From Candidatus Falkowbacteria bacterium RIFOXYA2_FULL_38_12 (lineage in GTDB: Bacteria; Patescibacteriota; Patescibacteriia; XYB2-FULL-38-15): 64,000 nt of DNA. The translations under genes were made by a program, and so were the position numbers. This document shows positions 9,775-62,214 of the stretch, one piece after another (within the stretch, counting starts at the first letter, position 1; each line of letters begins with the position of its first letter). The DNA lies in NCBI GenBank assembly GCA_001778095.1, contig MFGA01000006.1:6169-70168 (forward strand), written 5' to 3'. The notes beneath the pieces are model-generated. The model ran no database searches. It was not told the origin of the DNA and was given only the letters and a program-made list of their open reading frames with translations.

Positions 9775-9782
9775 AAAAAAGG

Positions 9783-9880
9783 ATTTTCCCCTCCCTTGAG
9801 GGGAGGGGTTAGGGGAGGGTGATATTTGTAGAAACATTTCACCCCCACCTAGCCTCCCCCATCAAGGGGGAGGAATGATA
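9783..9880. repeat. Repeat family G copy 1 (palindromic G/C-rich element, arms CACCCTCCCCTAACCCCTCCCATCAAGGGAGGGG)
   Basis: Two about-35-bp inverted arms separated by about 14 nt. A full copy lies at 32050-32140 and a single arm inside uvrB. Confidence 0.7.
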
Positions 9881-12998: not shown

Positions 12999-13010
12999 CG
13001 CTTTACTTTT

Positions 13011-13249
13011 AAAACTCTAAATCCGAAATCCTAAACTCTAAACAAATACTAATATCAAAAGCCCCCTCAATTTATCATCCCGAGCTTGTCGACCGCGTGT
13101 CGCTAAAGCTTCAGCGAGTGGCGCAGGGATCTCACGCCGTGGTTAAAGAAGTATTATGGGATTTCTCGACAAGCTCGAAATGACAGAAATAGTTTTTGAT
13201 TTTGTATTTTGGATTTGTTTAGGATTTGGTGCTTAGGATTTAGGATTTC
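13011..13249. repeat. Repeat family E copy 1 (arms AAATCCTAAACTCTAAACAAA / TTTGTTTAGGATTTGGTGCTTAGGATTTAGGATTT) with a family-C element nested inside
   Basis: Left arm 13011-13046, right arm 13201-13249. The interior carries family-C copy 13073-13195. Same arms at 20621-20759 and inside the 16S gene. Confidence 0.7.
13073..13195. repeat. Repeat family C copy 1 (TGTCATCCCGAGCTTGTCGA...TCGACAAGCTCGAAATGACA) carrying an inserted CGCTAAAGCT mini-hairpin module
   Basis: About-20-bp TIRs. Relative to copy 2 (48102-48180) it has a 33-nt insertion ccgcgtgtcgctaaagcttcagcgagtggcgca. Confidence 0.75.
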
Positions 13250-14357: not shown

Positions 14358-15050
14358 TTAAAAGTTTCCCGTAGAAATATAAGTAACCGTATGCGAATAG
14401 TTCCCAGTAACTGAACTTGTGGAAATTGTCGCTCTGTAGGTAATTGTAGTTGTACTTGCGTTTATATAACTTGAATAAGAGGCAACGGTTTGAGCAGTAC
14501 TGGTAATCGCCGTATCGGTCGCATTCATTTGTCCTTGGTCTCCCGAAGTTCTAATTCCATATTCTTCACTTCCGGCGCTCACAGATCCATCGGCGACATC
14601 GTTAATATCGTTTGCCCCACTTCTTAAGTTCCCATCTTCAATAACGGTTGTCGTATATCCTTTTTCTGAATTCGTTGTAGTGATAATCGTGTGGCTCCTC
14701 GTAGTAACAGCGTTTCGATCCAAAAGACCAAAATCAATTGAGTTGCTTGATATTGAAAAAGTTAAAGTTGGATTTGCCTCAACTTGTCTAAATCCCCCCT
14801 GATTTCCATAACTTGCGCTTGAAATTGGACCAGTTCCTAATTCTCCCAGAGTGTCCTGTAGTTGGTAGCTGGCAGAGCTTGAAGTTTCCTCCCCGCCGAC
14901 ATTAAAAGAATCCATCCAATTAATATAATTAGCTGAACTCATGGAAGCCAAGGACGTTTTTGGCTCTATGGTAAAAGGAAAAAAAAGACAAAAACAAACC
15001 AAAGCGATTTTTATTAATTTTATGAACAAAACCATCATAAAATAAATCAC
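14358..15050 (-). CDS. Secreted Ser/Thr-rich protein of unknown function
   Basis: 230 aa. N-terminal hydrophobic signal. Rich in S/T/N. Follows the surface-protein genes on the same strand. Confidence 0.45.
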   Translation of the reverse strand: MIYFMMVLFIKLIKIALVCFCLFFPFTIEPKTSLASMSSANYINWMDSFNVGGEETSSSASYQLQDTLGELGTGPISSASYGNQGGFRQVEANPTLTFSISSNSIDFGLLDRNAVTTRSHTIITTTNSEKGYTTTVIEDGNLRSGANDINDVADGSVSAGSEEYGIRTSGDQGQMNATDTAITSTAQTVASYSSYINASTTTITYRATISTSSVTGNYSHTVTYISTGNF

Positions 15051-15089
15051 TTTTATGCAATTAAAGGTACATGGAGACTTGTTCTTTGA

Positions 15090-15218
15090 TAATCCTTTCT
15101 ACTGCAACTGGTAATTTTGGCTCCAAATTGTTCAAAGCTCGTTGAGGTATTACCAATATCTCTCCTCGCTTTTCACAATTTTCGCTCAAAATTACTGCGT
15201 TTCGTAACGAAAGATTAC
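15090..15218. repeat. Repeat family F copy 1 (about 150-bp TIR element AATCCTTTCTACTGCAAC...GAAAGATTA)
   Basis: Near-identical to 52951-53084. Related copies at 58763-58925, 61182-61218 (partial) and 62046-62196 (inverted). Confidence 0.7.
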
Positions 15219-15584
15219 CAAAAAACAAGTCTTAAAAGAATAAAGCTTCTATTCCAAGGGTACGCAAACATTTACAGTCTTGATTCTTGCCTCAATTTTG
15301 GGTACAATTACATTAAGGCAGACTTGTTGCGGTTTGGGAAAGGAACTTTAATCTTTTTAACAAAGCCTCCCCTCTTTCTTTAAATGTTAACAATCAAAAT
15401 AAAGAGCAAAAGTGGATCAGATTGTTAATATTATTGTATACATTATATATATTATAGCATAAAAAAGGCAAAAAGTCAAAGATAGGAGCTTATATTATAC
15501 AATATTGTAAACATAGTGTATAGAGTACTGTAAACATTGAAAAAGAGGCTTTTGGCTATTTTGGTTTCCCCTGCCGTTTCCTGC

Positions 15585-20606: not shown

Positions 20607-20620
20607 AGGGTTATAAATAA

Positions 20621-20759
20621 AAATCTAAATCCTAAATCTTAAACTCTAAACAAACTCTAATTTTCCAATATTCAAAATTTTAGACAATCGTATTGTTTTG
20701 GACATTTGGATTTTGAATTTTGGATTTGTTTAGGATTTGGTGCTTAGGATTTAGGATTT
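20621..20759. repeat. Repeat family E copy 2
   Basis: Same arms as 13011-13249 and the 16S insert. About 140 nt, forms a long hairpin. Confidence 0.75.
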
Positions 20760-20807
20760 ACAAAGTTTCTGCTATAATAGTAATAAATAATAACTAAAGC
20801 GTCAAAG

Positions 20808-24481: not shown

Positions 24482-24580
24482 GTTAAAAGTGAAAAATGAA
24501 AAGTGCAAAGTTACGGTTAAAATTAAAATAATTTTTTACTTTAAATTTTAACTTTTCATTTTTCACCTTACACTTTTAAC
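24482..24580. repeat. Palindromic AAGTTAAAAGTGAAAAGT-type element (family H); right arm overlaps polA stop region
   Basis: Arms gttaaaagtgaaaaatgaaaagtgcaaagtta / taacttttcatttttcaccttacacttttaac. Same unit at 56621-56710 and inside uvrB, uvrC and trmD. Confidence 0.7.
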
Positions 24581-26301
24581 TGTTTTTTTAGTTCTCCCCA
24601 ACTATTTCCAACTTTGATCTCCGCGATAATCGGGACTTTTAGTTTTATAATTTTCTCCATAGTGTCTTTTACAAGCTTGGCGACTTTTTCCAAATCTTTT
24701 TCCGGCACTTCAAAAACCAATTCGTCGTGTACCTGTAGAATAATTTTAGAACGGGGGCTGACTTTGGGCAAATCTCGGTGAATTTTAATCATGGCCATTT
24801 TTATAATATCAGCCGCGGTTCCTTGGATGGGCATATTGATCGCCATTCTTTCCGCCTCGGCTTTGACCATCGGAATGGGTGAGAAAATTTCGGGCAAATA
24901 GCGTTTGCGACCGAAAATTGTTTCCACATATCCCAAATCGTAGGCCTTCTCTCTTGTTTCTCGCAAAAAATTGCTGACTCCTTCGTAAACTTCAAAATAT
25001 TTTTGGATAAATTCCCGAGCTTCGGTGATGGAAATTTCCGCGCTCTCGGCAAGGCCTTTGGCGCCCATGCCGTAAGTGACTCCGAAATTAATTGTTTTGG
25101 CCGCTCTCCTTATTTCCGGCGTAACATCTTTTAAATCAATTCCCCAAATTTTGGAAGCGGTTTGGCTGTGAATGTCTTCGCCATTTTTAAAAGCTCTGAT
25201 CATTTCCTCGTCATCAGCCAAAGAGGCGATAATTCTTAATTCAATATGAGCGTAATCGGCCGCGAGTATTTTTGTTCCCGCCGGCGCGATAAAAGCTTCC
25301 CGGATTACTTTTCCGAATTCTCCTTTGGTGGGAATATTTTGCAAGTTTGGATTAGAAGAAGAGAGGCGACCGGTAGAGGTTACTATTTGATTAAAGTCTG
25401 CATGGATTCGTCCGGTTTTTTTATCAATCAATTTTGGCAATGCTTCAAGATAAGTGGAGTTCAGTTTGGCAAGCTCGCGATATTGCAACATCTCTCCGGC
25501 AATCGGGTGAGCCTTTTTTAATTTTTGAAGGTCTCCGGCAGAAGTGGAGACGCCGGTTTTTCCCTTGCTTAATCCTTGAGTTTTTATTCCCAATTTTTCA
25601 AAAAGTATTTTTCTTAATTGAATAGGTGAATCAAGATTAAATTCCTCGCCGGCCATCTTATAAATTTTTTTGGCCAGTTCGTCTAAAATTATTGTTACTT
25701 TTTTTGACGCATTATTAAGAATAGCCGAGTTGATTTTTACTCCATTATTTTCAATCTCGGCCAAAACGGGTAAAAGGGGTAATTCAATTTCTTTAAAAAG
25801 TTTTAAGAGATTGACTTCTTCGAGTTCCGGCAAGAGCGCTTCTTTCAATTGCCAAATTATCATTGCGGACTGGCGCGAATACTCAAGAAGATCCTCCGAA
25901 GAGGCGTTTTTTTCGGGCAAAGGAAAATCTTTTTGCAGTTTTGTTGAGGCGAGTGTTTCTAAATTATAATTTCTAGCGCCGGGGTTTAAGAGATAAGAAG
26001 CGATAGCTGTATCAAAAGTGATTGACTGAACATTGATGCCATTTTGCGCAAGTAGTTTGATGCTTTGTTTCAAATCGTGTCCCCATTTTTCTATTTTCCT
26101 ATTTTCAAAAATAGGTTTTAGTTTGGCTAGGGATTTTTTATCAATCGGAAGATAAAAAGTTTCAGCGCCATTAAGGCAAAAGCTGATGCCAACGATTTTT
26201 TCGTCTGAAAAAGAAGAGTTAATATTAAAAACAAAAGCTCTTTCTTTGGCGAGCTTTTTTAAAAAATCGTTATATTCATTTTTGTCTTGGGTCGAAATCA
26301 T
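24568..26301 (-). CDS. polA: DNA polymerase I, polymerase (Klenow-like) portion lacking 5'-3' exonuclease domain
   Basis: 577 aa. Family A motifs RRAAKTINFGVTYGM and QVHDELVFE. Confidence 0.9.
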   Translation of the reverse strand: MISTQDKNEYNDFLKKLAKERAFVFNINSSFSDEKIVGISFCLNGAETFYLPIDKKSLAKLKPIFENRKIEKWGHDLKQSIKLLAQNGINVQSITFDTAIASYLLNPGARNYNLETLASTKLQKDFPLPEKNASSEDLLEYSRQSAMIIWQLKEALLPELEEVNLLKLFKEIELPLLPVLAEIENNGVKINSAILNNASKKVTIILDELAKKIYKMAGEEFNLDSPIQLRKILFEKLGIKTQGLSKGKTGVSTSAGDLQKLKKAHPIAGEMLQYRELAKLNSTYLEALPKLIDKKTGRIHADFNQIVTSTGRLSSSNPNLQNIPTKGEFGKVIREAFIAPAGTKILAADYAHIELRIIASLADDEEMIRAFKNGEDIHSQTASKIWGIDLKDVTPEIRRAAKTINFGVTYGMGAKGLAESAEISITEAREFIQKYFEVYEGVSNFLRETREKAYDLGYVETIFGRKRYLPEIFSPIPMVKAEAERMAINMPIQGTAADIIKMAMIKIHRDLPKVSPRSKIILQVHDELVFEVPEKDLEKVAKLVKDTMEKIIKLKVPIIAEIKVGNSWGELKKQLKV

Positions 26302-26324
26302 ACTAGATTTTCAAGTCATTCTGA

Positions 26325-26442
26325 GCGGAGCGACCGCGTGCCGCCTTAGCTTTAGCGGTGGCGCAAGAATCTCTGGGCTTGTCCCAGAATTGCTCGCATT
26401 CGCGAGAGATCCTTCCCCCGCAAAAGGCGGGGTCAGGATGAC
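26325..26442. repeat. Hairpin repeat family A copy 5 (with internal CCTTAGCTTTAGCGG mini-hairpin in inverse orientation)
   Basis: Same ends as family A. The interior is replaced by a segment with the CGCTAAAGCT module reverse-complemented. Confidence 0.7.
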
Positions 26443-26453
26443 GGCTTGGGTAG

Positions 26454-27368
26454 TTAAAACAAATTCCCCTGCGAGCCGGCCACCAAACTGTTTACTTTTG
26501 GAACAAGAGAATTAAATCCTAGCTCCTCAAAGATTTTAATAATGGGCGCAACGTCTATTTTTATTTTACAATCCTCTAAACTAAATTCAAAAGGCGCGTC
26601 CAAGACAAGAGTGACTAGTCTTTTTCCCAAGAGGACATTATCCTTTTCATTTTTTAAAATCTCCAAAGTCCGTTTTTTTATTTTTTCTATTTTTGGATCA
26701 TTTGACTCAATTGCCGAGTACAATTTTTCAATGGAATAAAATTCTTTGATAAGTTCAATTGCACCGACTTCACCAATGCCACGCGCGCCGGGAATATTGT
26801 CCGAAGGATCTCCCCGCAGTGCCTTGTAGTCAATTAATTGTTTTGGGGCAAAACCGTATCTTTCTTTTACTTTTTCTTCATCATAAAGAACAGTGTCGGT
26901 AATGCCTCTTTGTAAGGCGCAAACTTTTGTGTTGCCATCAACCAATTGCAGGACATCCATATCTCCGGTAATAACAACAGTTTCTATTTCCGGAATATTT
27001 ACTTTTTTATCAGCGCAAATTGTCGCGATTACGTCATCAGCCTCATATCGGCTTAATTCGTAGATGGGAATGTTAAATGATTTTACAATATCTTTGATGA
27101 TGGGTATTTGGGAGTAAAGTTCGTCCGGTTGTTTTGGCCTTTGAGCTTTATATTCTTTATATTCTTCGTGGCGAAAAGTTTTTTCTTTTCGGTCAAAAGT
27201 AACCGCGCCATAGACTGGCTTTAAATCTTTTATGGCTTTCATTAAAATCAGGGTAAAACCATACGCTGCGTTGACCGGCTGACCGTCTTTTTTGGAAGTA
27301 AGAGGGGGGAGGGCGTGCCAAGCGCGATGCAAAATAGCATTGCCATCAATGACGATGAATTTTTTCAT
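26454..27368 (-). CDS. 5'-3' exonuclease / flap endonuclease (Pol I N-terminal domain homolog, stand-alone)
   Basis: Start at MKKFIVIDGNAILHRAW (27368). The track ORF extends to 27440 into tRNA-Cys, which is spurious. PIN-like and H3TH 5'-nuclease motifs. Confidence 0.85.
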   Translation of the reverse strand: MKKFIVIDGNAILHRAWHALPPLTSKKDGQPVNAAYGFTLILMKAIKDLKPVYGAVTFDRKEKTFRHEEYKEYKAQRPKQPDELYSQIPIIKDIVKSFNIPIYELSRYEADDVIATICADKKVNIPEIETVVITGDMDVLQLVDGNTKVCALQRGITDTVLYDEEKVKERYGFAPKQLIDYKALRGDPSDNIPGARGIGEVGAIELIKEFYSIEKLYSAIESNDPKIEKIKKRTLEILKNEKDNVLLGKRLVTLVLDAPFEFSLEDCKIKIDVAPIIKIFEELGFNSLVPKVNSLVAGSQGNLF

Positions 27369-27373
27369 AAAAA

Positions 27374-27446
27374 AGGCCACGGCGGGAATTGCACCCGCGA
27401 ATAGCGGTTTTGCAGACCGCAGTGTTAGCTGCTTCACCACGTGGCC
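27374..27446 (-). tRNA. tRNA-Cys(GCA)
   Basis: Acceptor GGCCACG/CGTGGCC, anticodon stem GCGGT/ACCGC with loop CTGCAAA, T-arm GCGGG-TGCAATT-CCCGC, discriminator U73 (Cys identity), no CCA. Five to six nt from each neighbouring CDS. Confidence 0.85.
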
Positions 27447-27451
27447 ATTAA

Positions 27452-28249
27452 TTATTTTATAAAATTTTGGTAAATTCTATATTTCTTGATTAAATATAGC
27501 TTATTTTTTATATTCTTGTAAAGATAGCTTAGGATTTTTAATCCGTCTTGTTGAGAGTATCTCAGTTGATAACTTCTCCGACTGTTTAATGTCCTGTGTA
27601 AATTAATTTTGATGTTTTCGCTAATTAAGGCAGAAAGTTTGTCCAAAAAATTTTTGCATCCGGAAGTAAAAATAACTCTCAATGTTCCTCTGGATTTTTC
27701 GATGTGGACACATCCATCTCCGTCAAAGTATCCTCTCAAAAAACTTCCAAAATATTTTTTAGGAATAGCCGGCATTTCCAGATCAAGTGATTTGTTTGGA
27801 TGTAGCTTAAATTTACTTAAATCGTTAAAAATTTTATGGCTTCCAATTCTTAGTATAAAACGAGTCTTTCTATTATTGTTGAGGGCGGGGAGACGAACTA
27901 TTTTATGCTCTGAACCTAACGCGTTTTTAATTTTACTAATAATTTTATAATCGGTGTTATGAATTCTTAAATATAGACCTCGTAGGTAAGAAGCATCCTC
28001 TAGACTGCCATCAGCAAAAATAAATCCTAAAATATAAGCCATCTCGTACGACCATTTTTCAAAAAATTTTTCATTAACTTTGTATTTTACCCCCATATTT
28101 GCAGTATATATCCTTACGACTAGCTCGTCAAAACTATGTACCAAAAAAGGTTGCTTTTCGCAACCTTTTTTAAATCTCTTTTTTAGAATATTTCCATTTT
28201 TAGTGTTCTGACTCCAAATTGTTTGGCCTCGCCTCTTGTTTCCATCCAA
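27452..28249 (-). CDS. Free-standing double-motif LAGLIDADG homing endonuclease
   Basis: Motifs ILGFIFADGS and LRGYFDGDGCV about 100 aa apart. Alternative start at Met52 (28096) would remove the overlap with the upstream 3D-domain gene. Confidence 0.75.
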   Translation of the reverse strand: MDGNKRRGQTIWSQNTKNGNILKKRFKKGCEKQPFLVHSFDELVVRIYTANMGVKYKVNEKFFEKWSYEMAYILGFIFADGSLEDASYLRGLYLRIHNTDYKIISKIKNALGSEHKIVRLPALNNNRKTRFILRIGSHKIFNDLSKFKLHPNKSLDLEMPAIPKKYFGSFLRGYFDGDGCVHIEKSRGTLRVIFTSGCKNFLDKLSALISENIKINLHRTLNSRRSYQLRYSQQDGLKILSYLYKNIKNKLYLIKKYRIYQNFIK

Positions 28250-32049: not shown

Positions 32050-32140
32050 TTATTCCTCCCCCTTGATGGGGGAGGCTAGGAGGGGGTGGTAAATAAAATC
32101 ACCCTCCCCTAACCCCTCCCATCAAGGGAGGGGAAAAACT
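32050..32140. repeat. Repeat family G copy 2 (full palindromic element)
   Basis: Inverted arms cctcccccttgatgggggaggctaggagggggtg / caccctcccctaacccctcccatcaagggagggg. Confidence 0.75.
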
Positions 32141-33240: not shown

Positions 33241-33425
33241 TGTCATTGCGAGCCCCGACTTTTTAGTCGGGGCGTGGCAATTCTCCCCCAGCTGTCATCC
33301 CCGCGCAGGCGGGGATCCACTCTTTGTAAAAAGTAGATTCCCGCCTGCGCGGGAATGACAATAAAGATAAGGGTAACGAAAAGCAGGGGATTGCTTCGCT
33401 ACACTTCGTTTCGCTCGCAATGACA
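33241..33425. repeat. Repeat family B copy 2 with a nested hairpin element (33293-33360)
   Basis: Same perfect 12-bp TIRs as 14211-14352. Interior carries TGTCATCCCCGCGCAGGCGGGGA...TCCCGCCTGCGCGGGAATGACA. The right TIR overlaps the first ATG of the uvrB ORF. Confidence 0.8.
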
Positions 33426-35527
33426 TGTTATTATATATGAAAAATAAATTCAAAATAAAATCAAAATTTAAACCCGCCGGAGACCAACCAAAGGCAATTG
33501 AGCAATTATTGGATGGTCTTAATAAAGGATATGATCATCAAACTCTTTTGGGCGTGACCGGGTCTGGTAAAACTTTTACCATGGCTAATGTTATTGCCAA
33601 ATACGCAAAGCCGGCTTTGGTTATTGCTCACAATAAAACCTTGGCGGCCCAACTTTGTAACGAGTTTCGCGAATTTTTTCCCGAGAACGCGGTTCATTAT
33701 TTTGTTTCTTATTACGATTATTATCAACCGGAAGCGTATTTGCCGAGGACGGATACTTATATTGAAAAAGAGGCGATGATAAATGATGAGATTGATCGTT
33801 TGCGCCACGCGGCAACGCAGTCGCTCCTTACTCGGCGCGATGTGATTATTGTCGCGTCGGTTTCTTGCATCTATGGTTTGGGCGCGCCGGAAACTTATGA
33901 AAAAATAGTTTTGCATCTTAAAGAAGGGGAGGCGATTAGGAGAGATATTTTTTTGAATCAACTGATAACAATGCAATTTAATCGGACGAATGTTAATCCC
34001 AAACGTGGGGAATTTCGTTTGCGGGGAGAGATTTTGGAAATAATGCCGGTTAACGAAGAAACTATTTACAGAATAGTTTTTGATAACGAAAAAATTAAAA
34101 ATATTATAGAGCTTGATCCGGTGACGAGAAAAATAAAAAAGGAAGAAAGAGAAATTTGGATTTATCCGGCAAAACATTTTGTTATTTTGGGACCGGATAG
34201 AATCAGGGCATTTCAAAATATAGAAAAAGAATTAAAAGAGAGGTTGGAATATTTTAATAAAACGGGAAAGTTGCTTGAGGCGGAAAGGTTGGAGCGTCGG
34301 ACAAACTATGATTTGGAAATGATGCGCGAGGTTGGGTATTGCCACAGCATTGAAAATTATTCCAGGCATTTGTCGGGGCGCCAGGCAGGAGATCCGCCGG
34401 ATACATTGTTGGATTATTTTTCACCCTCCCCTAACTCCTCCCGTCAAGGGAGGGGAAATAACAAAAAGGATTGGTTGATGTTTATAGATGAATCGCACGT
34501 TACTGTCCCGCAGATTTCCGGAATGTACGGAGGAGACGCTTCCCGAAAAAAATCTTTGATTGATTTTGGATTTCGTTTGCCCTCGGCGGCTGATAATCGC
34601 CCGTTGAAATTCAATGAATTTGAAGCGCGGACGCCCCAGACAATTTACACTTCGGCGACTCCCAGCGAGTATGAATTGGGGAAGAGTAAACAAGTTGTTG
34701 AGCAAATAATCAGGCCGACAGGACTGCTTGATCCGGAAATTATCGTTAGACCGATCACAGAGAAGTTAAAAATGAAAAATGAAAAGTTAAAAGTTGGCGG
34801 TGATATGGGGAATAAATCCCAAGTGGAAGATTTGATGGAAAGAATTATTGAGAGAGTAAAAAAGAAAGAAAGAATTTTAGTGACAACTCTTACAAAAAAA
34901 ATGGCCGAGGATTTATCGGATTATTTGGAAGAGAAAAAGTTTAAAGTCCGTTATATTCACAGCGAGGTAAAGACTTTGGACAGAATAAAAATTTTAACAG
35001 AATTCAGGCGGGGAGTTTTTGATATTTTGATTGGGGTTAATTTGCTCCGCGAAGGTTTGGATTTGCCGGAAGTGACGCTCGTTGCGATTTTGGATGCCGA
35101 CAAGGAAGGATTTTTACGCAGTGAGACATCTTTGATTCAGACAATCGGTCGCGCGGCGAGAAATGTTTTGGGGCAAGTCGTTCTCTATGCCGACAATATG
35201 ACCGGATCAATGGAGCGAGCAATAAAAGAAACAGAGCGAAGAAGAAAAATACAAGCGGAATATAATAAAAAGCACAATATTACGCCGAAGACAATCAAAA
35301 AAGCGATTAAAGATATTATGAAAGTGAAAAGTGTAGAGTTAAAAGTGAAAAGTTTGTTGGAGCTAGACATAGCGGGGGAGAAAGGTAAAAATATTGAGGA
35401 GATTATTAAAGAAAAAGAAAAGGAAATGAAGGAAGCGGCACAAAATTTGCAGTTTGAGTTGGCGGCGTTGTTGAGGGATGAGATTAGGGAGTTGAGACAT
35501 TCTACGAAAGTACAAAAGATCAGATAA
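33425..35527 (+). CDS. uvrB: Excinuclease ABC subunit B
   Basis: 700 aa. Helicase motifs [14 protein letters not shown], beta-hairpin, C-terminal UVR domain. True start may be Met5 (33437). Contains in-frame repeat-derived insertions (see findings). Confidence 0.9.
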
Positions 35528-35699
35528 GCCTATTAGCAAGCCCCTCCCCTTAAGATAAGGGGCCGCGTGTCGCTAAAGCTATAGCGGCGGTGCAAGGATA
35601 GGAGGGGTTATGAGCGTTGGTTCATTACTCATAACTCCCCTTAATCCCCTCTTACCTTAAGAGGGGAGAACTCCCGGCAAGTTCTTTAAAATAAAAAAA

Positions 35700-35982
35700 T
35701 CCCACCGAGTATAAGTGTTCGATGCCGGTTTTGCGGACCGTTTTGCGCTGCATCGAGTTATACTCAGTGGGATATCGTGTAGTCACCATTTTGGAGGCAT
35801 TGCCCCGCTGGCCCCTGTGGGTCAGCTTAGTGTGGGGATGCCTTTCCTCCTTTCTTTTCCCGTTAGGGGGTTCGGTTTGCCGTGGTGGGGACGGACCCCT
35901 CTGAACCTAGAGGTTCCCCCTTTCATACCTTTCCGGGTAGACCCCACGGCAGTTTTTTGCCCTTTTTTTAAATAAGGGGGGC
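35700..35982. ncRNA. Candidate structured RNA (GC-rich block 1), identity and strand unresolved
   Basis: About 280 nt, GC-rich. Long-range complementary segments cccaccgagtataa/ttatactcagtggg, ccgtggtgggg/accccacgg and ggaggcattgcccc/ggggatgcc. Plus-strand hairpin plus T-run at 35955-35980. Minus-strand hairpin plus U-run at 35690-35700. Confidence 0.3.
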
Positions 35983-36157
35983 CAGTTCCGGCGTTCCCTC
36001 ATCGGGCGCCTCCATTCCTTTTCCCTCCCGGAGGGAGGGGGTTGATCAGGCGTCAGCCAGCTTGCACCACGTGACCGGGGCGATCTGCTTGGTCATTCGT
36101 GGCCTTCTTCTGATTCAGCCTACCGTTGGGGGTGGCTGAGTACCCCCTTTTCCTACG

Positions 36158-36512
36158 CATATTTTCAGGATATATATATATTAAAAAGTTGTCAAGCTAA
36201 AAAACAAAAAAACGCCTTGTGGCGTTAAAAAGAATAGTTGATGATAAAAATTGCCTCACCGGATACAAGCTGATCGTTTTTTGATGATCTTTCGACGCAA
36301 GCGTGCGTCAGGCTTGTGCCCGGTGAGGCTTCCGTACCCCGAAGGGTGTCTCGCAGAGGTCAGCTTGACCTCTTTCGGTGGGCACGAACGCCCTTCTTTT
36401 CCTGAACCATCATGTCACCTTTTTTCTGCCCGCCGGGGTTTCTACCGCGGTCGGGCTGGTTGAGAGTACAATTTCAGGATATATATATATATTAAAAAGC
36501 TGTCAAGAATTT
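36158..36512. repeat. Two 34-bp direct repeats (TTCAGGATATATATATATTAAAAAGYTGTCAAG) bracketing block 3
   Basis: Copies at about 36163-36196 and 36475-36508. Each carries a perfect TTGACA on the minus strand. Confidence 0.7.
36200..36470 (-). ncRNA. Candidate structured RNA (GC-rich block 3) with sigma70-like promoter and intrinsic terminator on minus strand
   Basis: Minus-strand TTGACA (plus 36501-36506) upstream of an AT-repeat -10. Minus-strand terminator: plus aacgccttgtggcgtt 36211-36226 preceded by A-run 36196-36210. Internal 10-bp long-range pair gcctcaccgg/ccggtgaggc and several GC hairpins including a UUCG loop. Confidence 0.35.
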
Positions 36513-36708
36513 GTATTTGTGGAAAAGGTGGGGATAAGTTCAATTTTTGAATTTTTAAACTTGAATTATCCGGAGTGATAGCCTTTAGGCTGTTATGTTA
36601 TGGGTAATAAGTTTGATAACACACTAAAGCGTGTCAGTCCGTTCAAGTTTAAGACATTAAAACATTAGAAAATTATTTATAAAATTAAAAATTAAAAATT
36701 TCAAAAAT

Positions 36709-39372
36709 ATGCAAGACAAAATAATCATCCACGGAGCGCGGGAACACAATTTGAAAAATATCAATCTTGAAATACCGAGAAACAAGATGACGGTTTTTAC
36801 GGGATTATCCGGTTCGGGAAAATCAAGCTTGGCTTTTGATACTATTTTTGCCGAAGGGCAGAGAAGATATGTTGAATCTTTGTCTGCCTACGCTCGGCAA
36901 TTTTTAGGGCAGATGAATAAACCAGATGTTGATGAAATTGAAGGGCTTTCTCCGGCGATTTCTATTGACCAAAAAGCACATAGCGCGAATCCTCGGTCAA
37001 CTGTGGCTACGATTACCGAAATTTATGATTATCTTAGAGTTTTGTTTGCGAGGATCGGCAAGCCTCATTGTCCGGTTTGCGGAAAAGAGATAAGAAAAAT
37101 GACGGTGGAGGAAATGGTGGATAGGGTATTGAAGAAAGTTGCCGAAAATCATCAGGCAAAAAATAATAAATTAAAGCCCGCATTCGCGGGAGATTCTTCG
37201 CTCGCTCAGAATGACATTGTTTTGGTTATGGCACCGGTGGTGAAGGGACGAAAAGGGGAATATTACCAATTGCTTTATGATTTATATAATGATGGATTTG
37301 CCGAAGTTCGGGTTAATGGAAAATTCAAAGAATTGAGAAATAAAATAATTTTGCCGAGATACAAGCAACACAATATTGATCTGGTGGTTGATAAAGTGAC
37401 TTTGGGTTGGCCAATAGAAAATAATAAAGGCTTAAGAGCGAGATTGGCCGAGGCGATTGAAACGGCTTTGAAATATGGCGGGGATATTGTTTCTATGATT
37501 TTGGATAATGGCGAAGAAATAGTGATGTCTTCAAAATTTTCCTGTCCGGAAGACAATTTTTCTTTTCCGGAAATTGAGCCACGTCTGTTTTCTTTTAATA
37601 GTCCTTATGGCGCTTGCGAAGCTTGTCATGGTCTTGGCACAAAATTTTTATTTTCTGAAGAAGTTTGTCCGGATTGCGAGGGGAATAGATTAAGGAAAGA
37701 AAGTTTGCACGTTTTGGTGGCCGGGAAAAATATTGTGGAAGTGACGGGAATGTCGATTGAAAATGCGCATAATTTTTTTTCAGAGCTGATGGGCAAAGAT
37801 CTTAAAACGTCTGCCCCTATTAAAGTTTCGGCGGACAAGGAAAAATTAAAACCAAGAATTATCCTAAGCGAGAATGATTTAGAGATCGGAAAAGCAATTT
37901 TCGCAGAAATACTGAACCGTCTGGGGTTTATGTTGGACGTCGGTTTGGGCTATTTAACTTTAAATAGAACCGCCGGGACTCTCTCGGGTGGGGAAGCGCA
38001 AAGGATTCGTCTCGCCTCGCAGGTTGGCTCAAAACTGGTCGGAGCTCTTTATATTTTGGATGAGCCGACAATCGGACTTCATCCCAAAGACAATGAAAAA
38101 TTATTAGCGACCTTGAGAAATATCAGGGACATTGGGAACACGGTCATTGTCGTGGAGCATGATCCGGAAACGATTTGGACGTCAGACTATCTGGTTGATA
38201 TTGGCCCGGGCGCGGGAAAGCACGGCGGGGAGATTGTGGCTGCCGGGCCAATGCCGGATGTCTTGGAAGATAAAAAATCTTTAACCGCGGCCTATCTTCG
38301 GGGAGATAAATTTATTAAAATTCCGGAGAAAAGAAGAAAAGTAGACGGAGAAAGCAAATATTTTTCTTCGGGACAATTAAAAATAGTCGGCGCGAACGAA
38401 AATAATTTAAAAAATATTGATGTTAGGATTCCCTTGAAGAGATTTGTCTGCGTGACCGGGGTTTCGGGATCGGGAAAAAGTACTTTGGTAAATGATATTT
38501 TATTGAAAGGTTTATCCAATAAGTTGAATCACACAAGCTATCAGGTAGGTAAGCATTCAAGAATTGAGGGGATGGAATATTTGGATAAAATTATTGAGAT
38601 TGATCAGTCGCCGATTGGAAGAACACCACGATCTAACCCGGCAACTTATACCGGATCATGGACAATGATTCGTGAGCTCTTTGCCTCTACTCCGGAAGCG
38701 CGAACTCGCGGTTATAAAGTGGGCAGATTTAGTTTTAATGTTCCTGGTGGCAGGTGTGAAAATTGCGAAGGAGCGGGATTAATAAAAGTGGAAATGCATT
38801 TTTTGCCGGCGGTTTATGTGCCCTGTGATGTTTGCAAGGGGACAAGATTTGATCGCGAAACTTTAGCGATTACCTATAAAGAAAAAAATATCCATGATAT
38901 TCTAAAAATGACGATTGAGGACGCCGAGGAATTTTTTAAGAATATTCCTTTGATAAAAGACAGAATGAAAATATTGCGCGAAGTTGGTTTGCAATATCTG
39001 ACTTTAGGACAAGCGGCGACAACTCTTTCCGGTGGGGAAGCGCAGAGAATAAAACTGGGTGCGGAGCTCGCTAAAAGATCAACCGGCCGGACGATTTATA
39101 TTTTGGATGAACCCACGGTCGGGCTTCATTATGCCGATGTGGAAAAACTTTTGGAAGTTTTGCATCGCCTTGTTAATTTAGGAAACACGGTGATTGTAAT
39201 TGAACATAATTTGGATTTTATTAAAACTGCCGATTGGATTATTGATTTGGGGCCCGACGGAGGCAATGCCGGAGGCGAGCTGATTACCGCCGGCACGCCG
39301 GAAGAAGTGGCAAGGATTGGGAAGTCATATACGGGGCAGTATTTGAAGAAAACTCTAAATTCGAAATCCTAG
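36709..39372 (+). CDS. uvrA: Excinuclease ABC subunit A
   Basis: 887 aa. Two ABC modules (GLSGSGKSSLAF, GVSGSGKSTLVN), zinc-finger Cys clusters, LSGGE signatures. Confidence 0.9.
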   Translation: MQDKIIIHGAREHNLKNINLEIPRNKMTVFTGLSGSGKSSLAFDTIFAEGQRRYVESLSAYARQFLGQMNKPDVDEIEGLSPAISIDQKAHSANPRSTVATITEIYDYLRVLFARIGKPHCPVCGKEIRKMTVEEMVDRVLKKVAENHQAKNNKLKPAFAGDSSLAQNDIVLVMAPVVKGRKGEYYQLLYDLYNDGFAEVRVNGKFKELRNKIILPRYKQHNIDLVVDKVTLGWPIENNKGLRARLAEAIETALKYGGDIVSMILDNGEEIVMSSKFSCPEDNFSFPEIEPRLFSFNSPYGACEACHGLGTKFLFSEEVCPDCEGNRLRKESLHVLVAGKNIVEVTGMSIENAHNFFSELMGKDLKTSAPIKVSADKEKLKPRIILSENDLEIGKAIFAEILNRLGFMLDVGLGYLTLNRTAGTLSGGEAQRIRLASQVGSKLVGALYILDEPTIGLHPKDNEKLLATLRNIRDIGNTVIVVEHDPETIWTSDYLVDIGPGAGKHGGEIVAAGPMPDVLEDKKSLTAAYLRGDKFIKIPEKRRKVDGESKYFSSGQLKIVGANENNLKNIDVRIPLKRFVCVTGVSGSGKSTLVNDILLKGLSNKLNHTSYQVGKHSRIEGMEYLDKIIEIDQSPIGRTPRSNPATYTGSWTMIRELFASTPEARTRGYKVGRFSFNVPGGRCENCEGAGLIKVEMHFLPAVYVPCDVCKGTRFDRETLAITYKEKNIHDILKMTIEDAEEFFKNIPLIKDRMKILREVGLQYLTLGQAATTLSGGEAQRIKLGAELAKRSTGRTIYILDEPTVGLHYADVEKLLEVLHRLVNLGNTVIVIEHNLDFIKTADWIIDLGPDGGNAGGELITAGTPEEVARIGKSYTGQYLKKTLNSKS

Positions 39373-39538: not shown

Positions 39539-40834
39539 ATGTCATTAAATATCAAAAACAAAATTAAATCTTTCCCTAAAACCCCCGGCGTTTATTTAAT
39601 GAAAAATAAAAATGGGGAGATTATTTATGTTGGAAAAGCCGGTTCGCTCAAAAATCGCGTGGCCAGTTATTTTAATCGTCCGCATGATATTAGAATAGAA
39701 AAAATGGTCAGCGAGATTAGTGACATTGATTACCAAATGACTCCGACAGTGATTGAAGCTTTGGTTTTGGAGGCGAACTTAATTAAAAAATATCTGCCGA
39801 AATATAATATCCGGGAAAAGGACGATAAGTCATTTCTTTACCTTGGTTTTTCTAAAGAAGTTTTTTCTCGCGTAATAATGTTACGCGGTCACGAGGTAGA
39901 GGAAGTGAAAAATGAGAAGTTAAAAGTGAAAAGTGATAATCAAAAATATAAAATCGGAAAGTTATTTGGTCCATATACGAGCGCCGGAGCGCTTAGAACC
40001 GCGCTTGATATTTTAAGGAAAATTTTTCCTTTCCGCGATTGTTTGGTTTTTCCCAAAAGACCGTGCTTGCAATATCAACTCGGCCATTGTGGAGCCCCTT
40101 GCGCCAATTTAATCAGCCAAAAAGAGTACACAAAAAATATTAATAACTTAAAATTATTTTTTGCAGGGAAAAAGGAAAAAATTATTAAAAAATTGAGTAA
40201 AGAAATGACCATAGCCAGCAAGAAGCAAGATTTTGAAACAGCGGGAAAAATAAGAAACCAAATTTTTGCTCTAAACCATATTCGCGATGTCGCTATGCTT
40301 AGAAAAGAAGAAGAAAAAAATATTGATTACGGGCGAGCCGGTGCAAAAAATATTTTTTATCGCATTGAGGGGTATGATATTTCAAATATCAGCGGAACCT
40401 CGGCGACGGGGAGTATGGTTGTTTTTCTAAACGGAGAGCCGGATAAAAATGAATATAGAAAATTTAGAATAAAGACAGTCGTCGGACCAAACGATACGGC
40501 AATGCTTAGGGAAGTTTTGTCGCGAAGACTCGAAAGAGCCGTTCGCGATTCTTACAATTGGCCGGCGCCGGATTTGATCCTGATTGATGGTGGCAAGGGG
40601 CAAGTGAATGTGGCAGAAGAAATTTTAAAGCAATATAAATTGAACATCCCGCTTGTTGGAGTGGCAAAGGGATATGATCGCAAGCAGGATCGCTTTGTCT
40701 ATGATGAAAAAAACATCAAGTTGGCTGATTTTATTGCGAATAATAAAAATTTATTGCTAAAAGTCCGCGATGAGGCACACAGATTTGCGGTCGGGTATCA
40801 TAAGTTTTTGAGAAAAAAGAGCTTGTTAAAATAG
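39539..40834 (+). CDS. uvrC: Excinuclease ABC subunit C (short form)
   Basis: 431 aa. N-terminal GIY-YIG (GVYLMKNKNGEIIYVGKAGSLKNRV), UVR domain, RNase H-like endonuclease domain. Lacks the C-terminal HhH pair. Confidence 0.85.
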   Translation: MSLNIKNKIKSFPKTPGVYLMKNKNGEIIYVGKAGSLKNRVASYFNRPHDIRIEKMVSEISDIDYQMTPTVIEALVLEANLIKKYLPKYNIREKDDKSFLYLGFSKEVFSRVIMLRGHEVEEVKNEKLKVKSDNQKYKIGKLFGPYTSAGALRTALDILRKIFPFRDCLVFPKRPCLQYQLGHCGAPCANLISQKEYTKNINNLKLFFAGKKEKIIKKLSKEMTIASKKQDFETAGKIRNQIFALNHIRDVAMLRKEEEKNIDYGRAGAKNIFYRIEGYDISNISGTSATGSMVVFLNGEPDKNEYRKFRIKTVVGPNDTAMLREVLSRRLERAVRDSYNWPAPDLILIDGGKGQVNVAEEILKQYKLNIPLVGVAKGYDRKQDRFVYDEKNIKLADFIANNKNLLLKVRDEAHRFAVGYHKFLRKKSLLK

Positions 40835-52929: not shown

Positions 52930-52936
52930 GTCTATA

Positions 52937-53095
52937 GACCTGTCACACAATAATCCTTTCTACTGCAACTTGTAATTTTGGCTCCAAATTGTTCAAAGCT
53001 CGTCGAGGTATTACCAATATCTCTCCTCGCTTTTCACAATTTTCGCCTAAAATTACTGCGTTTCGCTACGAAAGATTATTATGTGACAGGTCTAA
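52937..53095. repeat. Repeat family F copy 2 with extended about-25-bp TIRs (TAGACCTGTCACACAATAATCCTTTC)
   Basis: Outer TIR halves tagacctgtcacacaataatcctttc / gaaagattattatgtgacaggtcta. Confidence 0.8.
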
Positions 53096-53157
53096 AATAA
53101 AACAAGAGCCGCGCCACAAGTGCGGTTTTTGTTACTATAAATCCACAAATTTATATT

Positions 53158-53832
53158 ATGCTACAATTTGATATCATTACAATTTTTCCTGAAGTTTTCT
53201 CCGGTTATTTTAACGAGAGTATTATTGGTCGCGCGCAAAAAAATAATTTGATTAAAATAAATATTCATAATTTACGCGACTGGGCCGAGGATAAACATCA
53301 AAAAGTTGATGATAGCCCGTATGGCGGGGGACCGGGAATGGTCATAAAGATTGAACCAATCGCTAAGGCGATTAGTTCAATCTTTAAGTTAAAAATGAGA
53401 AATGAAAAGTTGAAAGTTATACTTTTTTCTGCCGGCGGAAAACAATTTGACAATACTGTCGCGTCGCGATTAGCGAAAAAATATGACCGTCTGATTTTGA
53501 TTTGCGGACATTATGAGGGCGTGGACGCGCGAATAAAAAAAGTTGTTAAAGATATGGGAATTGAATATTCCGAAATATCCATTGGCCAGTATGTTTTAAC
53601 CGGCGGTGAACTGCCGGCTATGGTTTTAGTGGATGCAGTGGCGCGCCAGGTGCAAGGTGTTTTGGGTAAAGAAGAATCTTTAGAAGAAAAACGGTTGGGG
53701 ATTGGAGTGCCGACTTATACTCGACCGGATATTTTCCATTTCAAGGATAAAAAATATGGGGTGCCTAAAGTTTTATTGTCAGGAAACCATAGAAAAATTG
53801 AGGAATGGAGAAAGCAAAAAAAAGAGGGTTAA
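53158..53832 (+). CDS. trmD: tRNA (guanine37-N1)-methyltransferase
   Basis: 224 aa. SPOUT knot motifs (GGGPGMV, CGHYEGVD). Contains an in-frame family-H repeat segment. Confidence 0.9.
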   Translation: MLQFDIITIFPEVFSGYFNESIIGRAQKNNLIKINIHNLRDWAEDKHQKVDDSPYGGGPGMVIKIEPIAKAISSIFKLKMRNEKLKVILFSAGGKQFDNTVASRLAKKYDRLILICGHYEGVDARIKKVVKDMGIEYSEISIGQYVLTGGELPAMVLVDAVARQVQGVLGKEESLEEKRLGIGVPTYTRPDIFHFKDKKYGVPKVLLSGNHRKIEEWRKQKKEG

Positions 53833-53924: not shown

Positions 53925-54099
53925 TAGAGCATATCCCCCAGAATGGGGAATTTTCTTTGACAACTTAAAGTGATAGAAATACCTCAATTCTTTAAATAAG
54001 AATAAATATAGTTATATATTGAGAGCTTGAACTCCGGTCTTCGGACCGGGTTGATTTTGTTCTTCTGAACAAAATTTAAGAGATTCAACACTTTCATTT

Positions 54100-55875
<1,776 letters not shown>

Positions 55876-56614: not shown

Positions 56615-56620
56615 TTTGAG

Positions 56621-56710
56621 AAGTTAAAAATGAAAAATGCAAAGTTAAAAGTTAATGAGTGAAAATTTTCACAATTCAAAAACTTTTAACTTTTAACTTT
56701 AGACTTTTAA
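56621..56710. repeat. Palindromic family-H element (AAGTTAAAAATGAAAAATGCAAAGTTAAAAGTTAA ... AACTTTTAACTTTTAACTTT)
   Basis: Inverted arms between tRNA-Phe and tRNA-Pro. Confidence 0.7.
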
Positions 56711-58504: not shown

Positions 58505-58762
58505 CGTAACCTATAAAAACGTTAACAAAACAAAAATAGTAAAAAAGGAAATGGGGGTTGGAGTGAGCGGAGGAAGTAAAAATCGGGTTTTTTACTCAAT
58601 TTTTCACTTCACAAAGCTTTTAAATTTAGTGTTCTTTCGGGAACTAAGCTAAATTTTCTGCTCCCAGTTCTTTCTTTACTATTTTTTTAGTATATTAAGA
58701 GGCGAGATAAAGGTCAAATTAATAAGATACGCAAACCCCCAAAAGGGGTTTATTGTATTATT

Positions 58763-58925
58763 AGACCCACCAAACAAGAATCCTTTCTACTGCAACTAGT
58801 AATTTTGGCTACAAATTTATAAAAGCTCCTCTGCTTATACTAATGTATAAACATCGTCGTTTTTCTAAATTTTTATCTCAAAATTACTGCGTTTCGTAAC
58901 GAAAGATTATTGTTTGATGGGTCTA
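58763..58925. repeat. Repeat family F copy 3 (TIRs TAGACCCACCAAACAAGAATCCTTTC / GAAAGATTATTGTTTGATGGGTCTA)
   Basis: Directly upstream of ftsK. Confidence 0.75.
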
Positions 58926-62011: not shown

Positions 62012-62045
62012 TTTTAAAATAAATAATTTGCGGAGGAGCAAGGTA

Positions 62046-62196
62046 GACTTGTACTCTAATAATCTTTCGTTACGAAACGCAGTAATTTTAGGGTAAAAAT
62101 TTAGAAAAGCGACGATGTTTATATGATTAAATATAAGCGGAGGAGCTTTTATTAATTTTTAGCCAAAATTACTAGTTGCAGTAGAAAGAATTGTTA
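62046..62196. repeat. Repeat family F copy 5 (inverted orientation), ending at the recA upstream region
   Basis: ctaataatctttcgttacgaaacgcagtaatttt ... ccaaaattactagttgcagtagaaagaatt. Confidence 0.75.
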
Positions 62197-62214
62197 GAGG
62201 ACAGTCTGGAATAT

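Follow-up and report, generated by a model that had tools for sequence, protein, structure and literature searches.

The repeats closest to the one described here are intragenic repetitive extragenic palindromic sequences (REPs). These are GTAG- or CGTC-tagged stem-loops of 20-40 nucleotides (nt), which are mostly extragenic and occur singly or as dimers in a head-to-head or tail-to-tail arrangement (Di Nocera, De Gregorio and Rocco, BMC Genomics 2013; PMC3733652). A minority lies in frame within genes and codes for 7-30 amino acids (aa), often in uvrA, uvrB, uvrD, polA and recBCD; examples are R. conorii uvrB with two single REPs, Thioalkalivibrio uvrA and both uvrA genes of Opitutus terrae (PMC3733652). 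In this study we analyzed a comparable repeat, here named family G, that is inserted in the uvrB gene (excinuclease ABC subunit B) of Candidatus Falkowbacteria bacterium RIFOXYA2_FULL_38_12, a groundwater member of the Candidate Phyla Radiation (CPR)/Patescibacteria. The whole 64-kb stretch of this genome that was analyzed is referred to as the window. Most probably, the insertion is a selfish REP-like element which is tolerated in a permissive disordered loop of UvrB and is polymorphic among close strains.

Other described systems are useful for comparison. Doublets of REPs, known as REPINs (REP doublets forming hairpins) or BIMEs (bacterial interspersed mosaic elements), are reportedly mobilised by REP-associated tyrosine transposases (RAYT), as Bertels and Rainey in 2011 and Nunvar in 2010 are said to have described. 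REP/RAYT pairs are usually species- or genus-specific. From cyanobacteria, Elhai et al. (Genome Research 2008) reportedly described small dispersed repeats (SDR), palindromic repeats of ~21-27 nt located in genes, in RNA genes and in each other. The classic in-frame case is said to be that of the Rickettsia palindromic elements (RPE) of Ogata et al. in Science in 2000. RPEs are selfish repeats that are found in frame in many unrelated housekeeping genes, where they do not inactivate the gene and presumably land, or persist, only in surface loops (PMC10969869).

The 34-nt string caccctcccctaactcctcccgtcaagggagggg was located in uvrB at 34422-34455 of the plus strand, exactly as first quoted. 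The host gene and the parts of the insert are as follows.

33425-35527, plus strand: uvrB (excinuclease ABC subunit B), open reading frame (ORF) of 700 aa, host of the insert
34421-34462, plus strand: codons 333-346 of uvrB; the extra DNA is 34421-34452 (32 nt) and 34459-34462 (TAAC, 4 nt)
34421-34458, plus strand: complete REP-like unit, type-1 arm, TCACCCTCCCCTAACTCCTCCCGTCAAGGGAGGGGAAA, with the 34-nt core at 34422-34455
34435-34455, plus strand: stem-loop of the unit, with 5' stem 34435-34442 CTCCTCCC (consensus CCCCTCCC), loop 34443-34447 GTCAA and 3' stem 34448-34455 GGGAGGGG

The insert segment is situated between LLDYF and the DW side, just upstream of the DESH motif. The first-pass annotation, which was made from the sequence of the window, had proposed an in-frame insertion adding about 12-14 aa. 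Indeed, the frame is preserved within an uninterrupted ORF, and both lengths apply: 14 codons are occupied by the segment, and the net gain in comparison with the empty allele is 12 aa (36 nt). Since the net gain is 36 nt and the unit contains no stop in that frame, uvrB stays open. Both printed alignments with UvrB structures of the Protein Data Bank (PDB; 9gy7_E and 3uwx_B) have a clean 14-residue gap at the insert.

The identity of the host gene is clear. By phmmer the protein matched 9gy7_E at E=3e-246, with similar results for 3uwx_B, 2fdc_A and 1d9z_A, and it scored above the NCBIfam equivalog cut-offs of NF003673 (992 bits vs 743) and TIGR00631 (978 bits vs 750). It is 100% identical to OGF21419.1 of Candidatus Falkowbacteria bacterium RIFOXYB2_FULL_38_15; the NCBI start of the gene is 33437 (696 aa). 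GSGKT, DESH and the remaining helicase motifs are invariant in the alignment with CPR relatives.

Conceptual translation of the insert gives a 12-residue stretch rich in Pro, Ser, Gly and Arg. In the AlphaFold2 model of UvrB (mean predicted local distance difference test score (pLDDT) 69, predicted template modelling score (pTM) 0.63) residues 334-346 form a coil with pLDDT <50 that follows helix 328-331 and precedes strand 351-356, at the end of which DESH is located. This predicted disordered coil agrees with the surface loop that had been expected just upstream of DESH. In RecA-like folds the Walker B residues lie at the C-terminal end of the DESH-bearing strand. Because they end that strand, the insert loop would be on the opposite side and, judging from the known fold, should face away from the ATP site.

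Filled and empty sites, which the first-pass annotation had suggested looking for in sibling genomes, were both found. In the 90%-identity cluster of the sibling protein P0003, one member (P0131, 714 aa) is empty with the site reading YF-GKNK-DW, and the remaining full-length members spanning the site read YF-SPSPNPS(R/P)(E/Q)GRGNNKK-DW. Over the whole gene, the uvrB DNA of the empty locus L123 and the filled locus L001 is 98.6% identical. Across ~500 nt on each side they differ solely by the indel and two neighbouring single nucleotide polymorphisms (SNPs). With an empty allele as similar as this, the net gain is fixed at 36 nt or 12 aa. A MAFFT alignment of filled (window, L121, L001, L124, L125) and empty DNA (L123, L002) resulted in a 32-nt gap and a 4-nt gap flanking a common GGGAAA. 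Furthermore, a pattern search of JGI metagenomes with the left flank yielded three additional contigs, all of them filled, and the filled allele is the common one in metagenomes.

These alleles bear on whether the insertion is real at all. It is hardly conceivable that the segment is a lineage-specific loop resembling the repeat by chance, or that an assembler joined unrelated sequences at a repeat. General caution, as repeats confuse metagenome assemblers, is the only point in favour of it. On the other hand, none of 100 shuffled sequences matched the string, and the indel is the sole difference between empty and filled alleles, whose flanks are otherwise nearly identical. The same filled junction recurs in assemblies and samples that were obtained independently (NCBI, ENA and JGI), which excludes an assembly artefact.

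Selection on the gene was estimated from the ratio of nonsynonymous (dN) to synonymous (dS) substitution rates. UvrB has a dN/dS of 0.06-0.15 versus its relatives: 0.13 for the window versus L001 and L124 (filled lineages, dS ~0.35), and 0.06 for L001 versus L123 and likewise to the outgroup. Given these values, purifying selection on UvrB has continued despite the insert.

By uvrB identity the loci group as (window, (L124, (L001, L123))), with L123 alone being empty. This nesting of an empty allele among filled ones requires an old polymorphism with recombination, or recurrent events. The empty allele carries GKNK as in distant outgroups and cannot arise from the filled allele via one deletion. 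From this pattern we infer an ancestral empty allele, with both alleles having coexisted and recombination having exchanged them; a preferred site that gained the repeat more than once is a possible alternative.

The comparison of filled and empty DNA revealed no target-site duplication at the uvrB copy, where a GGGAAA microhomology accompanies the indel of 32 + 4 nt. Likewise, exact insertion boundaries were not definable, since the best alignment needs both gaps. Speculatively, the 32 + 4 nt pattern would fit an event mediated by microhomology, after which a change of 4 nt restored the frame.

Variation among the filled alleles is concentrated in the loop of the hairpin. The DNA differs at the three loop positions 34443-34445 (GTCAA, CTCAA, GAGAA) and at 34436, where C and T are both wobble-compatible; otherwise the stems are invariant. 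Accordingly the peptide varies by allele, reading NSSRQ in the window, NPSPQ in L121, L124 and L131, and NPSRE in L001, L129 and L130, so that 3 of the 12 inserted residues vary between near-identical strains. In these alleles the insert peptide is not conserved and shows no sign of constraint, and the DNA stem is kept.

L121, another assembly of what is essentially the strain of the window, has 6 differences to the window in 22,103 nt. Two of them (34436, 34443) fall within the 34-nt element of uvrB, and the other four, all transitions, form a cluster of 43 nt in uvrA (38745-38787). Gene conversion from other copies, short recombination tracts or hairpin-associated mutation may account for these differences, as the two SNPs in the element suggest.

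To describe the repeat itself, the window was searched for the 34-nt string with up to 3 mismatches, and 100 dinucleotide-preserving shuffles served as control. Only 9788-9821 (minus strand) and 32100-32133 (plus strand) matched, with 2 mismatches each (94%), and 0 of the 100 shuffles gave any match. The segment thus shares its family with the two palindromic elements (9783-9880 and 32050-32140), a relation already seen in the first-pass annotation. A repeat search added two diverged arms at 9840-9873 (plus strand) and 32055-32088 (minus strand). In total, five arms are present in the window, of which four are located outside or at the edges of genes and form two doublets.

32055-32133, arms on both strands: intergenic doublet between an epmA-like gene and efp; type-2 arm 32055-32088 (minus), 11-nt spacer, type-1 arm 32100-32133 (plus)
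9788-9873, arms on both strands: second doublet in opposite orientation; type-1 arm 9788-9821 (minus), type-2 arm 9840-9873 (plus); overlaps the 5' end of the ORF at 5569-9837 (minus)

The sequence of the type-2 arm is CACCCCCNCCTAGCCTCCCCCATCAAGGGGGAGG. The doublet at 32055-32133 folds as a single long hairpin (-57.8 kcal/mol, z = -5.8). It is present in the window and in L121 and missing in L001, L123, L124 and L125 (epmA-efp spacer 27 nt). At the second doublet, the first ATG (9837) of the 1422-aa ORF 5569-9837 (minus strand) reads through the arm in the SPSPNPSPQGRG frame. This ORF has an internal ATG at 9774, and G-rich runs similar to Shine-Dalgarno sequences precede both start codons; the 21-codon N-terminal extension that the first-pass annotation regarded as spurious may or may not be genuine.

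The consensus of family G is a stem-loop of 36-38 nt, TCACCCTCCCCTAACCCCTCCC-nnnnA-GGGAGGGGAAt. Each arm alone is a hairpin with an 8-bp G/C stem (CCCCTCCC and GGGAGGGG) and a 5-nt loop, preceded by a C-rich, unpaired head of 14 nt (TCACCCTCCCCTAA) which partly duplicates the stem. The RNA fold of the uvrB unit has -16.6 kcal/mol on the plus and -25.2 kcal/mol (z = -4.0) on the minus strand. According to a position-weight analysis of 121 distinct copies from other genomes, information begins at T-C-A, 3 nt before CCCT, and the conserved 3' end is G-R-A-t, ~3-4 nt past GGGAGGG; the flanks beyond are random. Because conservation stops at these boundaries, the unit is 36-38 nt long and equals the net gain in uvrB.

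At a strict threshold (<=6 mismatches) ~125 singles and at least 21 dimers were counted, the latter head-to-head as well as tail-to-tail, and further doublets with divergent partner arms were recognised by visual inspection. Since the unit occurs alone as well as in doublets, the uvrB copy is not a broken half-element but a complete singlet. The earlier description as a single arm of a palindromic repeat is therefore correct in so far as it is an arm of the family; it is also a complete unit of 36-38 nt by itself. In the broad sense, family G has the properties of REPs: a G/C-rich stem-loop of 20-40 nt, dispersed in many mostly extragenic copies, as singles and dimers. Its anatomy is of the REP/BIME/REPIN type.

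For the spread of the repeat we scanned one genome per GTDB species (596 Gb) with the pattern CCCTCCCCTAACYCCTCCCNNNNAGGGAGGG (27 specified bases), for which the chance expectation is roughly 1e-4 by our arithmetic. Matches were found in at least 118 stretches from at least ~65 assemblies and at least 10 phyla, so family G is not specific to the Falkowbacteria genome. Hosts are Planctomycetota (anammox Brocadiales, Phycisphaerae), Thermodesulfobacteriota and other 'delta' lineages, Nitrospirota, Nitrospinota, Chloroflexota, Spirochaetota, Chlamydiota, Alpha- and Gammaproteobacteria (Pseudomonadota), Bipolaricaulota and, within CPR, Uhr-, Doudna- and Kuenenbacteria. The copies are near-identical across phyla, their flanks are unrelated, and several genomes carry many copies.

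In some genomes the unit was observed at a fixed position inside longer genome-specific repeats (L113, L114, L068 (Nitrospirae MYbinv3); L005, L011, L031, L044 and others in Phycisphaeraceae; L028, L054, L072, L082 and L103 in Thermodesulfobacteriota), and in one case in the loop of a bigger palindrome. This indicates nesting or co-amplification of repeats.

That the same 36-nt sequence is nearly unchanged in at least 10 phyla is unusual for REP-like repeats and unexplained. The element could be actively spreading via a widely shared enzyme or be kept by a conserved recognising factor; in that case the repeated capture in uvrA, uvrB and uvrC of CPR would modify nucleotide excision repair (NER) through targeting or selection, instead of reflecting tolerance. 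We consider this unlikely.

The nucleic acid could also be the functional part, as a hairpin in the mRNA causing ribosome pausing or else stabilisation or attenuation of the transcript, or as a G-quadruplex/i-motif switch, with coding being incidental. The near-constant DNA across these phyla suggests that some factor recognises nucleic acid. Additionally, the hairpin is stable above all on the minus strand, where GGGAGGGGTTAGGGGAGGG with its four G-tracts could form a G-quadruplex or i-motif, and among alleles an invariant stem is combined with a variable loop. However, the positions that vary are too few, and the conservation of the stem is not statistically significant. Folding of the 121-nt mRNA context does not surpass that of shuffled sequences (z = -0.02), nothing resembling a terminator or promoter was found at the insert, no Rfam family corresponds to it, and most copies are intergenic with random flanks, as for a selfish repeat. 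Such a role is thus rather improbable.

Further searches for a known family or a vehicle were negative. Across the whole window, Rfam at the gathering threshold detected rRNA and tRNAs only, and for the doublet at E up to 10 just generic miRNA-hairpin noise appeared, far below gathering scores. No NCBIfam family, RPE or other, was found on the UvrB insert region or the three insert peptides at E up to 1. In the full-text literature searched, neither CCCTCCCCTAACCCCTCCC nor its complement nor PSPNPSP occurred, and none of the top-ranked matches joined the terms for CPR and for miniature inverted-repeat transposable elements (MITE). As to MITE terminal inverted repeats, the uvrB copy is a lone arm with no inverted partner nearby. 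Among ~120 loci no inward-facing arm pairs at a spacing typical of an insertion sequence (IS) or a transposase were evident, and the Pfam scan of ten window ORFs, which was not genome-wide, revealed no transposase. A phage vehicle was rejected as well, with one exact match in 2.9 million IMG/VR contigs. Finally, a mobile provider of Shine-Dalgarno sequences (GGGAGGGG upstream of starts) was considered by counting start codons of ORFs >=80 aa within 40 nt downstream of a copy; there was no enrichment (16/115 copies vs 23/114 on the control strand).

Of the six reading frames of the unit three are open, as determined by eye, and their products are rich in Pro, Ser, Gly and Arg: SPSPNPSPQGRG, HPPLTPPIKGGE and, on the reverse strand, PPPLVGGVRGGG. 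Family members in coding DNA are found elsewhere, too. In Uhrbacteria, doublets lie in frame in ORFs that by their motifs, read by eye, are SecA-like, RecG-like (two copies) and Der/EngA-like. PSPNPS(P/H)QGRG is encoded by singlets in ORFs of a Thermodesulfovibrionales and a Nitrospinae metagenome-assembled genome.

These copies also bear on the idea that the 36 nt are bypassed or removed instead of being translated. Byps are short GC-rich elements which yeast mitochondrial ribosomes hop over, and a 50-nt gap is known from T4 gene 60. A GC-rich hairpin in an AT-rich coding sequence has a superficial likeness to byps. In every filled allele, however, the insert is stop-free and an exact multiple of three, which implies selection for translatability that would be needless if the insert were bypassed. 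The inserts in other genes and lineages are all in uninterrupted ORFs or full-length predicted proteins (a survey that is blind to frame-breaking copies), and no take-off/landing codon pair or other bypass signals are evident. We therefore regard bypass as very improbable.

To compare the site among relatives, the spacer from YF to xxxIDESH was parsed in 111 of the 120 closest CPR UvrB homologues. The site of the insert, here named site 1, has the canonical 4-6 residues (PDDF, PKDF, GKNKDW/GKDK) in 82/111 and 8-48 residues in the other 29/111. Together with the 14-residue gaps relative to the PDB structures, this supports the proposed insertion with respect to canonical UvrB. The counter-case that had been named, a similar-length segment in all orthologs of the lineage, is contradicted by the 82 empty sites and by L123. 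A second site, which follows RPIT where the two RecA-like domains meet (site 2), has 14-55 residues instead of 9-11 in 36/109.

The inserts differ by lineage. Several are translations of recognisable repeat types and others are AT-rich KxKxK stretches. In the Uhrbacteria UvrB P0049 (65% identical), a doublet of the same superfamily occupies the identical site; its DNA consists of a variant arm (CCCTCACCCCAACCCTCTCCC-ACAAG-GGGAGAGGG), a spacer and a reverse type-1 arm, and the peptide is YPSPQPSPTRGEGGTTNPPPLVGGVRGGG. The inserts HPERSEGSR...DSSPLAQN and VIAS...LLRRSSLAPRND resemble CGTC-type REP peptides of Rickettsia (PMC3733652). When site-1 inserts of other lineages were compared with their own 11-22 kb loci, a partial second copy was present in L128 only. 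For the L126 insert the label 'repeat' refers to its palindromic structure alone, as there is no second copy in its own locus.

Site 2 of the window is occupied by another repeat.

34760-34795, plus strand: AT-rich repeat copy in uvrB site 2; 35/36 identical to 56618-56653, inside a 19-aa gap relative to solved UvrBs

This copy is in frame and coincides with an AlphaFold coil at 446-462 (pLDDT <50). The sibling L001 (91% identical) carries a different, CGTC-like insert at site 2, which points to fast insert turnover. Site 1 is a permissive hot spot that other repeat families have occupied repeatedly and independently.

A second sub-family with the architecture of family G (CATAACTCCCCTTAATCCCCTCT-TACCTTA-AGAGGGGAGA) was observed at 35629-35666 of the window. 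Copies of 89-92% are present in Uhrbacteria L127 at 12199-12234 and 14451-14487; uvrB carries one of them at its 3' end, and the other lies in uvrA.

Based on these data, a small non-coding REP-like stem-loop would have inserted into uvrB in an ancestor of the Falkowbacteria lineage, either by transposition through a mobilising enzyme or by template-switch/recombination at GGGA/A-rich microhomology. The element would be translated as its 12-residue stretch and form a disordered loop that connects the short helix (328-331) to the beta-strand with helicase motif II (DESH). Because this loop would be tolerated by the protein, the insertion could persist as a near-neutral passenger.

The repeats within coding DNA are concentrated in uvrABC. 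They were identified by blastn of five window repeat families against the window. In-frame copies other than the one of family G are listed here, together with the uvrA copy that could be compared with a structure.

34760-34795 and 35312-35355 in uvrB, 37160-37217 and 39349-39371 in uvrA, 39905-39925 in uvrC, 53386-53419 in trmD: in-frame copies of other repeats (AT-rich, CGTC-like, D9/13)
37160-37217, plus strand: CGTC-like repeat arm in uvrA, in frame; the insert ...NNKLKPAFAGDSSLAQNDIV... is a gap relative to PDB 2r6f

Seven copies lie wholly within protein genes (uvrB x3, uvrA x2, uvrC x1, trmD x1) and two more in the 16S rRNA, with some matches being weak (E up to 3e-4) and the events not necessarily independent. 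Thus 6/7 intragenic copies are in uvrABC, which makes up 12% of the coding DNA (binomial ~2e-5, post hoc). The repeat segment of uvrC is located in a region with other repeat-like inserts in Uhrbacteria relatives. A simple tolerance model leaves the bias unexplained. It echoes a bias in Rickettsia, Opitutus and Thioalkalivibrio that was described in 2013 and is likewise unexplained (PMC3733652).

An adaptive explanation would be that REP-type insertions alter the activity of NER proteins, resulting for example in a weak mutator phenotype or in a change of damage recognition, and are kept by selection, as speculated by Di Nocera et al. 2013. The uvrABC share of intragenic copies would fit, and the same bias to UvrABC, UvrD, PolA and RecBCD is known from the three genera just mentioned (PMC3733652); moreover, the filled allele was kept over a dS of ~0.35 and is the common one in metagenomes. 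We nevertheless consider adaptation to be improbable, since the peptide is unconserved, the loop of relatives holds unrelated inserts of 8-48 aa or none, and the empty allele coexists with the filled one. Insertions would also be expected to be tolerated in large, modular, weakly expressed proteins. Strict NER specificity is doubtful because the family is present in SecA-, RecG- and Der-like ORFs and a copy of another family in trmD.

Several points weigh against a tolerated selfish element. Pure neutrality would not predict the uvrABC bias. On the uvrB tree, filled and empty sites are not distributed as after a simple single gain, with the empty L123 nested among filled alleles, and the junction is not that of a clean cut-and-paste event, having 32 + 4 nt gaps, one substitution and no target-site duplication. 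No transposase was identified for family G, with RAYT not searched genome-wide. The AlphaFold model of UvrB is moderate overall. Finally, production of the peptide, unchanged UvrB activity and functional neutrality are inferred.

Compared with the described systems, family G resembles the intragenic REPs (Di Nocera, De Gregorio and Rocco, BMC Genomics 2013) in unit size, dimers and the location in uvrB. It is not a member of the GTAG/CGTC REPs, which have a terminal tag, whereas family G ends in T-C-A and G-R-A-t without either tag. Further differences are the C-rich unpaired head and the CPR host, a group outside PMC3733652. In that paper no GGGAGG or CCTCCC motif is given and family G is not listed.

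With RPEs the uvrB copy has in common the in-frame insertion into an intact, selected gene. RPE families are confined to Rickettsia, and the classic RPE-1 has ~100-150 bp, 30-50 aa and a conserved peptide, in contrast to 36-38 nt, 12 aa and at least 10 phyla in family G. Family G is therefore not an RPE, since size and host differ and the insert peptides had no NCBIfam match. The architecture of REPINs is seen in the doublets 32055-32133 and 9788-9873, which consist of two non-identical inverted arms that fold as one long hairpin; the uvrB copy differs in being a singlet. Unlike REP/RAYT pairs, family G is nearly invariant across phyla, and no RAYT is known for it. SDRs are alike in being short palindromic repeats that nest, with a different sequence and host range. 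In summary, family G behaves like an intragenic REP or RPE and stands outside the named families.

Additional features of the window were noted. The 16S rRNA gene (54098-55874) has 1777 nt in comparison with 1533 nt of the model, and at 55341-55497 it contains the two arms of a palindromic repeat family, of which other copies are located at 13003-13248 and 20611-20766. At least part of this CPR 16S insertion therefore looks repeat-derived.

The spacer between uvrB and uvrA (35528-36708) is 1.18 kb long, in contrast to 4 nt in the relative L002. It contains two GC-rich units on the minus strand, each behind a near-identical promoter-like box TTGACA-17-TATATA/TATCCT (36195-36167 and ~36507-36478). 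Unit 2 (~36470 to 36205) ends at a terminator-like hairpin (36226-36211, minus strand) and is ~80% conserved in siblings, and unit 1 (~36160 to 35690) is missing from siblings. Neither had an Rfam match at E<0.1. By their sequence features they are candidate unannotated non-coding RNAs.

In uvrA (36709-39372, 887 aa) ~110 residues of PDB 2r6f (chain positions 306-419) are without counterpart; the CPR UvrA thus appears, from this alignment, to be without one inserted domain of canonical UvrA. DNA polymerase I (24568-27440, minus strand) is split into two ORFs, the 5'-3' exonuclease (26454-27440) and the exo/polymerase part (24568-26301). They are 152 nt apart, and the gap contains CGTC-like repeat arms at 26315-26333 and 26381-26418. 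An ORF for a LAGLIDADG endonuclease follows at 27452-28249. Furthermore, a repeat of ~170 nt has four copies (15074-15245, 52935-53106, 58762-58925, 62044-62204). The last two are inverted around ftsK and a helix-turn-helix gene upstream of recA and were considered as IS ends; there is no transposase between them, and they do not delimit an IS.

The mechanism class of such insertions is already known. New here are its occurrence in CPR, the repeated colonisation of the same UvrB loops, the concentration in uvrABC and the constancy of a 36-nt element across phyla; in the full-text literature searched there was no description of CPR proteins being remodelled by tiny repeats. CPR genomes are very small and streamlined. 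Despite this, their proteins can be remodelled by tiny selfish repeats, for which Rickettsia is the textbook case. Loops of CPR proteins that are rich in Pro, Gly, Ser and Arg or in Lys, length variation and at least one insertion in the 16S rRNA gene of the window can be repeat-derived, and such segments should be masked in alignments, phylogenies and structure predictions.

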